Shown: positions 14,221 to 17,461, counted from the stretch's first letter. The stretch is DNA of 64,000 nt from Methanobacteriota archaeon (GCA_963719035.1 CAVRAO010000008.1:128001-192000); one strand, 5' to 3'. The notes: generated by a model from the letters alone, not told the origin. Made by a program: numbers and translations.

Positions 14221-14455
14221 AAAAGCGTGGGTTCTCGAAACGGCTTAAATATTTCGATTTGATCGTGCCGTGTCACGAGCCAATGGGTTCTTAGCCACTT
14301 GCCGCTTGTCGCGTGATACACTGCGACGTAGTCACCGATTCATAATATTAAGCGCTTGGCTGAGCTTAACTGGCAAAAAATAGCACATTTAAAGTAGGAG
14401 CGCTTTATAAACACTAGTTTAGCCCGAAGGTTTTAGGTACGACGTCTAAGGAGGA

Positions 14456-14887
14456 CTGGTTCTAACGGCTGAAAAAGCGTGGGGATTAGCCGCGTACGCG
14501 TTGTTGCGGAACAGCGAGGACAAATACCTGCTTTTACGCAGATCTTCAGATTCCAAAACAAATCCAGGGAGATGGGAACCTCCAGGTGGCAAGATTGAGC
14601 CTGGAGAGCTGCTTGACGAGGCTCTTCGAAGAGAAGTATTTGAAGAGACGAACTTGCAGATCGTCGTTCGCCGATTGCTGGGCGCTGTCGAGTTCGAGCT
14701 TCCTACCATTAAAGTCGCGTGCCTCATTATGGAGGGGCGTATTATATTAGGGGATATCCATCTTAGCGTTGAGCACGACGCATATCGGTGGCTCAGGTTA
14801 GAAGAGGTGCGACACGTCGACCTTGCGACGCATTTTAGGCGCTATTTCTTCAGCGATCAATCGCAGCGAAATGTTATGGTTGAGTGA
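14456..14887 (+). CDS. Nudix hydrolase (start possibly CTG at 14456; first TTG at 14501)
   Basis: Nudix box [43 protein letters not shown]. Confidence 0.92.
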
Positions 14888-14929
14888 GACTATACCCGTA
14901 AGTGCTTCATCAATCAGAGATGTGCGTAG

Positions 14930-17461
14930 GTGCCGAGCACGATGAGTGAAACCGATCAAGACCAGTTCCGCGCGTGGTATAGAGAGCAAATTGAGAACTT
15001 TGAACGCGTTGCGCCGCGCTATGAAGATCTGGCAAAGGTTCTTGATGCTATCCTTACGGCGCTTGCAGAGCGATACGCACCGCTTGCAATAGTACAAACA
15101 CGACCGAAGTCACTTTCGAGCTTCGCAGAGAAGATTATTCGAAAGCGCGCTGAGGTGAGCGACCCGGTCAACGAGTTTACCGACCTCTGTGGGGGACGCG
15201 TCATCACCCACACCCAGACCGAGGTCACGTCGATCTGCAATTATATCGAGAAGCATTTTGACATCGATTGGGACAATAGCGTCAACATTGACCAACGCCT
15301 CAAGGCGACCGAGTTTGGGTACCGATCGGTCCACTACATCGTCAGCTTGCGTCCTGGTTCGTTGACGGTCGGAAGCATTTCGATTGAGATTCCAGAGACG
15401 GTCGCCCGTTTGAAGGCTGAAATACAGGTGCGCACACTCCTCGAACACGCGTGGGCTGACTTCAGCCACGATAAGAGTTACAAAAGCTCGTTTGCATTCC
15501 CGCGACAGTGGCAACGTGAACTGGCGCGGATAGCCGCGGTGCTCGAGGATGCCGATCAATCCTTTGCGACGATTGAGAACCGCCTGACAGCTTACGCTGC
15601 TAACTACAGCGCATACATGAGTGAAGCGCAGATACGAGAAGAGATGCGCACCCTCATCATGATCCTTGAACACGACCCACACAACGTCCAGCACGCGCAC
15701 CGGATTGGACGACTGGCGATGACGCTCGGCGACTGGGAGCGGGCCATCGAGACCTTTACCGCGTACGTCGATACGGGCTACCCTCCCCTCCTCAAAGATC
15801 TAGGAGTTGCACTCTGCAAGCGACACAGCGCAAAGCCCTCAAGCACACCTTATCGAGAGGGACAGCGCTTCATCGAGACTTCGCTTGCGAAAGTCCACGA
15901 CCCTGATACGCTTGTCTGTCTTGCAGATACGTGGCGTGAGAGTGATGAATGGAAGGCGCGAGAGTTATACCGTCAGGCGTTTGAGCTCGATCCCTCAGAT
16001 CCCTACGCGCTCATCAACTATCTAGAGCTCGAAATCAGCCATCGCGGAACGACCTCTGTCGTCGACGTTGTTCGCCCCTTAATGCGCATGGCAATTCGAC
16101 GATGCTGGGAACAGATCGCTGTTGGGATCAATATTCCGTGGGTATACTATGCCCTTGGAGTGCTCCATTTACTCCTCGATGAGCTTCACGATAGTCTCAT
16201 CGCTTATGCAAAGGCTATCCAAATGAGCACCGCAGAGTGGCCGATTGCAAGTGCATACCACTCTCTCGTTAAGCTGGCCTCTGTCCAGAGCGCGTTACAC
16301 GGTTACACGTGGGCGCGCACCCTCTTGCTCGTTGGATGGGCAGGGCGGTTCGACGCTGCTGAGGCACGCACATATCTCGAAAAGTTGGCCACGCCGAATA
16401 GCCGGCGAATCAAAGCGCCGGTCACCATCGTCACTGGTGGGTACGATTCTCTGAGTGAATCATATGCGACGAGCTATCAGGAGCTTATGCGTGAGGCTTT
16501 CAAGGACTATAACGGGACAATCATCTCGAGCGGTATCGACGCGGGCATTAGCCACGTCATTGGGGATGTGCAAGAGCGCTATCTCGAGCTACAAACGATT
16601 GGATTCGTTCCGAGCGTGCTTCCCCAAGGCTCTGCTCTCGATGCGCGGTACAGCGAAATCCGCCGAACGGATGATGAGGGATTCAACCCCGCTGAGCCCC
16701 TCCAATATTGGGTTGATCTTATAACATCGGGTATTTCACCCACGAGCGTCAAGCTTCTCGGCATCGATGGCGGCAGCATTGCGGGCATCGAGTATCGTCT
16801 AGCGCTCGCATTGCGCGCGAGCGTCGCCGTCGTCGCGGGAAGCGGCGAGGAAGCGGCGCGGTTGGTCCAGGACGACGAATGGCGTACGTCCGAGACGCTC
16901 ATACAACTGCCAAAAGATCCGCTTTCTGCGCAGGTGTTCATCGGTTCAACCGAACAAACGCTCCCAACGGCCATACGAGAGCACATCGCACGCGAGATCC
17001 ACGACATCTATCGCAACCGCCTCAAAATGACGCAAAGCGAGGACCCCTCGCTTGCTGATTGGGATAGGCTTGTCGAACACCTTAAAAACTCAAGCAGGGC
17101 ACAAGCGGATCATATCGCACAAAAACTAAGCGCAGCTGGCTATGGAGTCAGAAAGGCACGCGGCACGCCTGTCGTGCAGGAGTTCTCGTCTGAGGAAGTC
17201 GAGATCATGGCAGAGCTTGAGCACGGCCGGTGGAACGTGGAACGCCTGCTTGACGGGTGGAAATGGGGACCGATAAAGGACGTGGCAAATAAGATTAGCC
17301 CATATATCATACCATGGACCGGACTGCCCGAAGAGATGAAGGAGTACGATCGTGATGCGGCACGTCAGATACCGCATTTGCTTGAGGAGGTGGGCATGGA
17401 GGTCGTCCGAATGCCTACTCAGAAACGCAAACCGTCGCGGCGCAAGCCTGTTCCTGCTTAA
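14930..17461 (+). CDS. Multidomain RelA/SpoT-type nucleotidyltransferase + TPR + SLOG-like + RyR repeat protein
   Basis: RPKSLSSFAEK, DLCGGRVI, GYRSVHY, EIQVRTLLEHAWA; TPR helices ~aa 250-470; SSGIDAGIS/IDGG/VAVVAGSG; AELEHGRW..ERLLDGWKWG..KD..K.SPYIIPW..LPEEMKEYDR. Confidence 0.88.
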   Translation: MPSTMSETDQDQFRAWYREQIENFERVAPRYEDLAKVLDAILTALAERYAPLAIVQTRPKSLSSFAEKIIRKRAEVSDPVNEFTDLCGGRVITHTQTEVTSICNYIEKHFDIDWDNSVNIDQRLKATEFGYRSVHYIVSLRPGSLTVGSISIEIPETVARLKAEIQVRTLLEHAWADFSHDKSYKSSFAFPRQWQRELARIAAVLEDADQSFATIENRLTAYAANYSAYMSEAQIREEMRTLIMILEHDPHNVQHAHRIGRLAMTLGDWERAIETFTAYVDTGYPPLLKDLGVALCKRHSAKPSSTPYREGQRFIETSLAKVHDPDTLVCLADTWRESDEWKARELYRQAFELDPSDPYALINYLELEISHRGTTSVVDVVRPLMRMAIRRCWEQIAVGINIPWVYYALGVLHLLLDELHDSLIAYAKAIQMSTAEWPIASAYHSLVKLASVQSALHGYTWARTLLLVGWAGRFDAAEARTYLEKLATPNSRRIKAPVTIVTGGYDSLSESYATSYQELMREAFKDYNGTIISSGIDAGISHVIGDVQERYLELQTIGFVPSVLPQGSALDARYSEIRRTDDEGFNPAEPLQYWVDLITSGISPTSVKLLGIDGGSIAGIEYRLALALRASVAVVAGSGEEAARLVQDDEWRTSETLIQLPKDPLSAQVFIGSTEQTLPTAIREHIAREIHDIYRNRLKMTQSEDPSLADWDRLVEHLKNSSRAQADHIAQKLSAAGYGVRKARGTPVVQEFSSEEVEIMAELEHGRWNVERLLDGWKWGPIKDVANKISPYIIPWTGLPEEMKEYDRDAARQIPHLLEEVGMEVVRMPTQKRKPSRRKPVPA

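Follow-up and report, generated by a model that had tools for sequence, protein, structure and literature searches.

A candidate two-gene nucleotide-signalling module pairing a RelA/SpoT-TPR-SLOG-RyR protein with a Nudix hydrolase in a Methanobacteriota archaeon

The window analysed here, a stretch of 64,000 nucleotides from a Methanobacteriota archaeon (GCA_963719035.1 CAVRAO010000008.1:128001-192000), contains two neighbouring genes. The first encodes a Nudix hydrolase, and the second, referred to below as gene 2, encodes a large protein in which a RelA/SpoT-type synthetase domain is followed by TPRs, a SLOG domain and a pair of RyR repeats. With a rough probability of 0.55, the two genes are read as a nucleotide-signalling module of the conflict or stress type, in which a ligand-gated alarmone synthetase would act as the effector and the Nudix enzyme would erase its product. 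The module is most likely a stress or anti-virus switch. At the level of sequence, the identities of the domains, the integrity of the catalytic motifs and the genetic coupling between the Nudix and synthetase genes are established. An original prediction, made from the DNA sequence alone, had described the same gene pair, and its individual claims are taken up with the results that bear on them.

In the proposed mechanism, the C-terminal TPR-SLOG-RyR cassette would hold the catalytic domain in check, and a nucleotide-derived ligand at the SLOG domain, the RyR repeats or both would lift the brake. The synthetase would then transfer pyrophosphate from ATP to the 3'-OH of a purine nucleotide, and the products, alarmones of the (pp)pGpp or (pp)pApp type, would arrest growth, or ATP would be drained. 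The MutT/NudI-like Nudix enzyme, or a small alarmone hydrolase (SAH) in its place, would hydrolyse the product and would thereby set a threshold, guard against leaky synthesis and reset the switch, roughly in the manner of a type IV antitoxin. There is a precedent for a C-terminal brake: in Tde-SAS, a small alarmone synthetase (SAS) followed by TPRs, synthesis is held back by the TPR domain, which "acts as a brake" (PMC10434055). The ligand gating, the nature of the product, the action of the Nudix enzyme on it and the role in conflict are what we infer from the evidence laid out below. Since bacteria as well as archaea have members of the family, we favour an action that would be universal, for example the drain of ATP or GTP or the inhibition of conserved purine enzymes, over control of the bacterial RNA polymerase, on grounds of reasoning and not of data.

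The synthetase domain and its C-terminal cassette

The catalytic domain of gene 2 is assigned to the superfamily of RelA/SpoT homologues (RSH) and, within it, to the small alarmone synthetase type. Its Pfam RelA_SpoT match reaches 7.4e-17 (62.1 bits against a cut-off of 27). The motifs by which such synthetases are recognised are RxKxxxS, DxxGxR, GYxSxH, ExQxRT and EHxW. All of them had been reported for this protein, and their residues proved to be invariant in 70 of 70 aligned homologues: R58, K60, D85, G88 and R90, then E128, F129, G130, Y131 and H135, and finally E164, Q166, T169, E172 and W175 (residue numbers of gene 2 refer throughout to a frame of 843 aa). When the N-terminal 240 aa were compared with solved structures at E <= 1, the matches comprised RelP/YwaC (best 6fgk, 9.7e-12) and RelQ/YjbM only, and a residue-by-residue alignment of the synthetase motifs to RelP was obtained; no long RSH or other RelA/SpoT-family structure was matched at this threshold. 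Pfam did not find HD hydrolase, TGS or ACT domains in the gene 2 protein, which is thus not a long RSH. Because the motif residues are invariant and the nearest solved relatives, RelP and RelQ, make (p)ppGpp, the synthetase looks competent. A second RelA_SpoT match was not found elsewhere in the genome, and HD_4, the family of small alarmone hydrolases, was not found anywhere in this 91%-complete genome.

The synthetase domain is followed by a helical region. In Pfam, several TPR families (TPR_2, TPR_1, TPR_19 and TPR-S) give matches that fall within aa 228-433, none of them exceeding its own family cut-off, and aa 226-486 are entirely helical in the predicted structure of the full-length protein (pLDDT 88.1, pTM 0.76). 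TPRs had been proposed for this position, and this holds.

The middle segment is a SLOG domain, as had been suggested. SLOG and LSDAT were reportedly defined by Burroughs et al. in 2015. In the window protein, the LSDAT_prok profile (PF18171) matches aa 497-550 at 2.5e-6, with 27.4 bits against a cut-off of 25.4. The same profile was found in 35 of 37 homologous C-terminal halves (best 1.4e-11), and no other SLOG family was found in these halves at E <= 0.001. In the homologue P0063, the match covers profile positions 2-173. A model of the cassette (aa 470-843), built on 37 sequences (pLDDT 89.1, pTM 0.87), was compared with 48,161 chains using VIA-align. Model residues 6-206 aligned with the LOG-like protein TM1055 (1rcu) at Z 17.4, with 161 aligned residues and a root-mean-square deviation of 2.9. 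The MHR1/2 region of TRPM2 followed with Z 15.5 (8sr7) and 14.9 (7aov), and further matches were MCP (Z 15.4), DprA (3uqz, 13.3), the SLOG domain of ThsA (7uxs, 11.7) and YpsA (10.2). In Foldseek, TRPM2, TRPM4 and TRPM8 matched the SLOG model at E about 1e-7. As for the narrower suggestion of a TRPM-type SLOG, the fold of TRPM2 MHR1/2 is matched, LOG-like TM1055 scores at least as well, and with scores so close the TRPM type cannot be told apart by fold alone. Residues G529 and G614 of the glycine loops and the acidic residue E621 are invariant among the aligned homologues.

At the C-terminus, two RyR repeats had been predicted. Pfam sees a single one (aa 755-825, 3.4e-14, 53.3 bits against a cut-off of 27.4), and the predicted fold shows a pair resembling Repeat12. 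The last ~170 residues align over 198 columns with the 205-residue Repeat12 of RyR3 in Foldseek (E 2.3e-8, TM 0.59 on the target); the entries matched are 9l9b, 9ls7 and 6uhh, the titles of which name bound ADP, AMP-PCP and ATP. Additionally, 6uhs was aligned with model residues 192-359 by VIA-align (Z 8.2), and the Bacteroides-human RyR chimera 6uhi was matched by sequence at 6e-17.

The family to which gene 2 belongs is large, widespread in bacteria and archaea, and uncharacterised. At least 618 proteins share length and architecture with the gene 2 product, and the best 120 listed homologues are about 46-52% identical to it outside the genus. The sources named include Anaerolineae/Chloroflexota, Proteobacteria, Planctomycetes, Eisenbacteria, Altiarchaeales, Bathyarchaeia and Halobacteriota. 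The identity between archaeal and bacterial members is ~50%, which, across domains of life, implies horizontal transfer. In contigs taken from one genome per species, 203 loci encode a relative; the locus counts given below are drawn from the best 80 of these 203. Some members of ~1055 aa carry a KaiC/RecA-like ATPase C-terminal to the RyR repeats (P0063, P0098 and P0108). The shorter relatives include SAS-TPR forms of ~400 aa (P0122, P0139; 38-51% identical to the window protein) and an RyR-RelA_SpoT form (P0163). Full-length members were not found on viral contigs, where five loci carry the SAS domain only. All the parts of the protein are of known kinds, and SAS-TPR proteins, toxSAS-hydrolase pairs and SLOG-gated effectors are characterised precedents. 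A literature search, whose reach did not extend to the paper that founded SLOG or to supplementary tables of the RSH classification, yielded no description of a RelA/SpoT-TPR-SLOG-RyR protein with a Nudix partner.

The Nudix partner and its likely substrate

The Nudix enzyme is a genuine partner of the synthetase, because adjacency, co-occurrence, fusion and replacement by HD_4 all point the same way. A tblastn search with the window Nudix over the 80 homologous loci detected a Nudix gene adjacent to the synthetase gene (within 600 bp) in 44 and one gene away in 5 more. Of the adjacent genes, 32 are upstream and 9 downstream on the same strand, and 7 of the latter gave weaker matches (E 1e-5 to 1e-8). 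Another 2 are on the opposite strand, and one (L030) is just upstream of the synthetase gene but was scored as "inside" the tblastn match span. The five more distant ones are 1.4-2.9 kb upstream, and the intervening gene encodes a protein of the TrkA_N-RyR type of ~600 aa. No Nudix gene was found by this search in 31 of the 80 loci, 9 of which have a flank under 600 bp.

The other lines of evidence come from genomes and from gene fusions. The Nudix subfamily (E <= 1e-10) occurs in 5 of 41 related genomes, each time next to an RSH-type match; four of these matches belong to the family, and the fifth, on G007:C15, is an open reading frame (ORF) for a divergent RelA_SpoT. A search of the remaining 36 genomes, two of which retain nothing more than 3' remnants of the synthetase gene, did not reveal this subfamily. 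Nudix is fused to RelA_SpoT, in the order of the operon, in two of 119 shorter relatives: P0159, which is cut by the contig end, and P0207, a protein of 316 aa encoded on a 41-kb contig. The expected linkage of homologues to Nudix genes is thus borne out by adjacency in 44 of 80 loci, co-occurrence in all five genomes with the Nudix subfamily, and two fusions. A middle domain other than SLOG and homologues unlinked to Nudix genes had been named as results that would speak against the original prediction, and on both counts the outcome was favourable to it.

In a few loci, the place of the Nudix enzyme seems to be taken by another hydrolase. HD_4 small alarmone hydrolase genes were found in 4 of the 80 loci, 3 of which are without a Nudix gene, and the one in L085 adjoins the synthetase gene, whose start it overlaps. 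An SAH is a proven type IV antitoxin of toxSAS (bioRxiv 10.1101/575399). The presence of HD_4 SAHs in three Nudix-less loci lends support to the logic of a writer plus an eraser, and the eraser can apparently be exchanged between Nudix and HD_4.

HD_4 neighbours are also compatible with a different target, in which the activated synthetase would pyrophosphorylate the 3' CCA end of tRNA like the toxSAS enzymes FaRel2, PhRel and CapRel, so that translation is blocked in any host. Some RSH toxins are known to modify tRNA, and their action is reportedly reversed by SAHs (bioRxiv 10.1101/2021.04.30.441581). A universal target of this kind would explain function in both bacteria and archaea. This reading is nonetheless held to be quite improbable. 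The solved-structure matches of the catalytic domain at E <= 1 are limited to the nucleotide-making SASs RelP and RelQ, and there is no conserved small partner resembling a type II antitoxin. Moreover, Nudix chemistry would leave a 3'-phosphate on the tRNA and charging would not be restored, so by general Nudix chemistry the enzyme would make a poor antidote.

Outside its start codon, the Nudix gene looks constrained. The Pfam NUDIX match reaches 2.2e-18 (67 bits against a cut-off of 21.1), and 22 of 23 highly conserved positions are retained. The consensus of the Nudix box is GX5EX7REUXEEXGU. The box had been described as intact, which is true of REx2EE but not of the final G; this is replaced by N, at a site where G is present in 89% of 38 homologues. 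The best solved relative is PDB 3grn, a "MutT related protein" (3.1e-31), and the alignment with it opens 4 codons into the Nudix frame, at residue 2 of 3grn. It is followed by NudI, CTP pyrophosphohydrolase, Ap4A hydrolases, MutT/MTH1 and diphosphoinositol polyphosphate phosphohydrolases; the best 60 of 79 solved-structure matches include no ADP-ribose pyrophosphatase. The best NCBIfam matches are a generic Nudix hydrolase model (PRK08999), NudI, MutT and pyrimidine (d)NTP diphosphatase, and the NAD diphosphatase model is matched weakly (4.4e-4). A type like MutT and NudI would fit a nucleoside-polyphosphate substrate better than ADP-ribose.

This bears on the question of which nucleotide is erased. 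In TRPM2, the SLOG region (MHR1/2) and the NUDT9-homology Nudix domain both handle ADP-ribose, and the original prediction had drawn on this analogy. With MutT, NudI, CTP pyrophosphohydrolase and Ap4A hydrolases as its relatives and no ADP-ribose pyrophosphatase in the best 60 of 79, the parallel does not appear to extend to the Nudix enzyme, and this part of the prediction is not supported. By the same analogy, the Nudix enzyme could degrade the ligand of the SLOG or RyR domains (ADP-ribose or another NAD-derived signal) instead of the synthetase product. The SLOG fold does match ADP-ribose-bound TRPM2 (Z 15.5, E 6e-8), and genes for TIR proteins, the makers of NAD-derived signals, are present in at least 14 of the 80 loci, some of which also carry a Nudix gene. 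It is an unlikely arrangement, however, in view of the MutT/NudI/NudG/Ap4A-like character of the enzyme, of the fusions that join Nudix directly to the synthetase domain, of the HD_4 alarmone hydrolases in Nudix-less loci, and of the window locus itself, which is without a TIR gene, the genome's five TIR genes being on other contigs.

One peculiarity of the window concerns the Nudix start codon. The reading frame, as delimited by an ORF scan, is 14450-14887 (+), and homologues of its product open with M-x-x-K-P-W/F. The codon aligned with their ATG is ACG in the window (14465-14467), whereas the congener loci L013 and L014 have ATG after the same GGAGGA; the GGAGG element is invariant across the window and both of these loci. 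Between the upstream stop and TTG 14501, there is no ATG, GTG or TTG, and a start at TTG 14501 would drop 12 conserved residues, including the first conserved strand. An assembly error confined to this record is an improbable source of the ACG, because two 99%-identical assemblies from two studies (X1 and X5) have no differing letter at 14465-14467. Either ACG serves as an inefficient start, or an intact synthetase is accompanied here by a crippled eraser. The latter would mean that the synthetase is safely auto-inhibited, as would the 31 loci without a Nudix gene.

Locus, inheritance and neighbourhood

The window is archaeal and carries a complete 16S-tRNA-23S-5S operon at 8482-13420 on the minus strand. 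The two-gene unit had been placed behind a sequence box, which is TATA-like, and both ORFs and the box (Table 1) were found. Five copies of the motif TTTATAAA are present in the window, where 1.15 would be expected, and none of 100 shuffles reaches 5. The region of the box aligns with L013 and L014, where the corresponding sequence is CCTATAAC. The longest ORF of gene 2, as given by the ORF scan, is 14930-17461 (+) and opens at GTG 14930; the spacing between the end of the Nudix frame and the start of gene 2 is 42-54 nt. An ORF of 843 aa is therefore present as predicted, but the true start is most likely ATG 14942, which gives 839 aa, because the database entry for the window's own gene 2 protein has 839 aa and homologues open with MSE or MTE.

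Table 1. Features of the two-gene unit, in window coordinates
Feature	Position	Strand	Remarks
TATA-like box TTTATAAA	14404-14411	+	ahead of the two-gene unit; motif search
GGAGG Shine-Dalgarno-like element	14450-14454	+	10 nt 5' of the ancestral Nudix start
MutT/NudI-like Nudix hydrolase gene	14465-14887	+	ancestral start codon is ACG here
RelA/SpoT synthetase-TPR-SLOG-RyR protein (gene 2)	14942-17461	+	839 aa from ATG 14942 (most likely start)
RelA_SpoT catalytic domain, small alarmone synthetase type	15098-15487	+	aa 57-186; Pfam
TPR-like helical repeat region	15611-16339	+	aa ~228-470; Pfam and predicted structure
SLOG domain, LSDAT_prok type	16352-16954	+	aa ~475-675; Pfam, VIA-align and Foldseek
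RyR repeat pair, Repeat12-like	16967-17419	+	aa ~680-830; Pfam, Foldseek and VIA-align

Within the genus, full or near-full copies of gene 2 are present in 5 of 18 genomes, the window's own genome (G000) included. One of these five copies, that of G010, is split by a frame break, and in two further genomes, G017 and G008, just the last 390-650 nt of the synthetase gene remain. Judging by these distributions, the module behaves as an accessory gene that is patchy, decaying and horizontally spread. In sediment metagenomes, single contigs of low depth (X9 and X11) join position 14402 to 17135 and to 17431, which links a site just ahead of the TATA-like box with the 3' end of the synthetase gene. 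As the sides of the joints are as short as 33 and 30 letters, with the likeness threshold set at 90, they are a weak hint of deletion alleles of the whole module.

The pattern of inheritance has to be weighed against the view that the module is an acquired (p)ppGpp-type circuit for stress or starvation, in which SLOG and RyR would read the adenylate or NAD status and no conflict would be involved. Several observations agree with such a housekeeping messenger. The catalytic domain is nearest to RelP and RelQ, the window locus lies among housekeeping genes, the genome is without another RelA_SpoT gene and without an HD_4 gene, and the viral contigs yielded SAS-only relatives (five loci) and no full-length member. 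In addition, Tde-SAS, itself an SAS-TPR protein, complements a relA spoT mutant (PMC10434055). Against this view, copies are distributed very patchily, a single genus shows both frame breaks and remnants, and the ~50% identity across domains of life implies horizontal transfer; the possible deletion alleles in sediment metagenomes, with joint sides of 30-33 letters, add a weak point in the same direction. The neighbours of homologues, which include TIR, NACHT, WD40 and SLATT-like genes, also speak against it, and a pure housekeeping role is considered improbable.

These neighbours point towards conflict systems. TIR-domain genes occur together with Nudix genes in some loci, for example L015, L021, L047, L059 and L073. 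Other neighbours encode TIR-NACHT, DUF4062-NACHT-TPR, WD40 and DUF4231/SLATT-like proteins, and an RyR protein of 880 aa is encoded in 6 of the 80 loci. The TrkA_N-RyR protein is found near the synthetase in ~24 of the 80 loci, often between Nudix and synthetase (examples are L022:4693-6474, L036:2588-4393 and L031:4678-6501). It may be a third component of the module; it was not found in this genome. Both genes of the unit match candidate families of PADLOC (PDC-S33 at 2.4e-15 and PDC-S07 at 8e-22).

The cassette is also present without the synthetase. On contig C6 of the window's own genome, at ~114.8-118.9 kb (L095 and L096), lies a broken TPR-SLOG-RyR paralog, which consists of three frame pieces with 2 stops and is followed by a gene for a 409-aa membrane protein and by a TIR_2-PsbP fusion gene. 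In G002 (L012), an intact SLOG-RyR paralog of 507 aa precedes a 78% identical version of this membrane protein, which gives a weak DUF4231/SLATT-like match. Since the SLOG-RyR cassette without a synthetase adjoins SLATT-like and TIR-PsbP partners, the synthetase appears to occupy an effector slot. The sensor cassette, as these gene arrangements indicate, is modular and is reused with differing effector-like partners.

A more specific version of the module can tentatively be put forward, and it is possible without being probable. Here, the protein would belong to a class of immune or stress effectors in which an SLOG-RyR receptor directly gates the bulk synthesis of (pp)pApp or (pp)pGpp, shutting down metabolism in archaea as well as in bacteria, and the Nudix enzyme sets the firing threshold. 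The signal may then be NAD-derived, coming from TIR partners where they are present, or it may be a shift in adenine nucleotides.

A number of observations weigh against the preferred reading of the pair as a ligand-gated synthetase with a product-erasing Nudix enzyme. With regard to the sensor, the LSDAT_prok match of the window protein spans just profile positions 2-59 of 195, and because the LOG-like match of the model is at least as good as that to TRPM2, the predicted SLOG domain could be catalytic instead of sensory. With regard to the eraser, SAHs also reverse tRNA pyrophosphorylation, so its replacement by HD_4 leaves the product undecided. The loss of the Nudix ATG in this genome, taken together with the 31 loci in which tblastn found no Nudix gene (the flank being under 600 bp in 9), suggests that the eraser is dispensable, which suits auto-inhibition and weakens the antitoxin-like reading. 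With regard to the role in conflict, the PADLOC families matched are candidate families only, and the surroundings of the window locus are of the housekeeping kind (the rRNA operon, purP-like and Fwd-like genes and an ABC transporter) and form no defence island.

The position beside the rRNA operon had been suspected to be coincidental, and this fits: three tested proteins from the window flanks are absent from the 80 loci, except for a 105-aa ORF in L013 (rRNA was not searched there). This ORF (13903-14220, minus strand) has no Pfam, NCBIfam or PADLOC match; its counterpart in L013 is 66% identical and is also upstream of the Nudix gene. The same three collections gave no match to a 317-aa ORF at 18456-19409 on the minus strand. 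The genome's five TIR_2 genes are on contigs C6 and C12, and a TIR gene was not found at the window locus. A lipoprotein-like PsbP_2 gene (17658-18245, minus strand) is convergent to the synthetase gene. It drew attention because a TIR-PsbP fusion, on C6, lies near the paralogous cassette, but was rejected as a partner of the module: PsbP_2 genes number at least 9 in the genome, the copy fused to TIR included, and the family was not found in homologous loci, so the adjacency is attributed to chance. Farther away, a PurP-like gene (DUF1246 and DUF1297) is seemingly split into the ORFs 4641-5444 and 5455-5784 (+), and an intact PurP-like paralog is present at 7268-8365 (+). A TrkA_N-DHH-DHHA1 protein encoded at 23973-25298 (+) is a possible nucleotide phosphoesterase with a regulatory Rossmann domain, and next to its gene, at 23067-23741, there are a cluster of tRNA genes, some apparently intron-bearing, and a C/D-box sRNA.

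Comparison with known systems and significance

Four known systems, together with the ryanodine receptor, help to place the module. Tde-SAS/DsRel (PMC10434055) carries, like the window family, a RelP/RelQ-like synthetase of ~220 aa at the N-terminus, with TPRs immediately after it. DsRel consists of SAS and TPR alone (~410 aa), whereas the window family adds SLOG and the RyR pair (~830 aa) as well as a conserved Nudix partner; the window protein is thus set apart by its architecture. The toxSAS FaRel and its SAH ATfaRel (bioRxiv 10.1101/575399) join a synthetase and a product-degrading enzyme in a conserved operon. The window pair would resemble them in this, as would the few loci in which an HD_4 SAH stands in for Nudix. 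Unlike the single-domain toxSASs, the window protein has 839 aa, four domain regions and built-in putative sensors, and the usual partner is a Nudix enzyme, found in all but 31 of the 80 loci, rather than an SAH or a binding antitoxin.

ThsA of the Thoeris system (SIR2-SLOG) is likewise an effector enzyme fused to SLOG; the two SLOG domains are alike in fold (7uxs, Z 11.7), and TIR genes accompany the window family in some loci. ThsA is an NADase, whereas the effector of the window protein is predicted to be a pyrophosphokinase and its SLOG domain, which belongs to the LSDAT_prok type, stands between TPRs and RyR repeats; unlike Thoeris, the window locus is without a TIR gene. TRPM2 shares the SLOG fold (8sr7 Z 15.5, 7aov Z 14.9) and the combination of SLOG and Nudix in one system. 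In contrast to TRPM2, there is no channel, the Nudix enzyme is separate and appears closer to MutT and NudI than to NUDT9 or ADP-ribose pyrophosphatases, and ADP-ribose as the ligand is only a guess. The tandem RyR pair recalls Repeat12 of the ryanodine receptor and bacterial RyR proteins (3nrt, 6uhi), but in the window it forms the C-terminal module of a soluble enzyme.

Alarmone synthetases are known as starvation sensors or as small toxins. If the preferred reading of the gene pair is correct, an alarmone synthetase would here be wired to two putative nucleotide-sensing domains and a Nudix eraser, in a form that is ~50% identical across many archaeal and bacterial phyla. The module would then offer an entry to the use of RelA/SpoT enzymes in archaea, to the ligands of prokaryotic RyR domains and to sensing by prokaryotic relatives of the TRPM SLOG domain. 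That the cassette has a SLATT-like membrane protein as its partner in other places suggests that sensor and effector form a modular system, comparable to Thoeris or CBASS, and the natural loss of the Nudix start codon in this genome is a ready-made test of the need for the eraser. Should the more specific version, with direct gating by an SLOG-RyR receptor, prove true, methanogen-related archaea would have their first description of a functional alarmone circuit, and RyR repeats would gain a prokaryotic role as nucleotide sensors.

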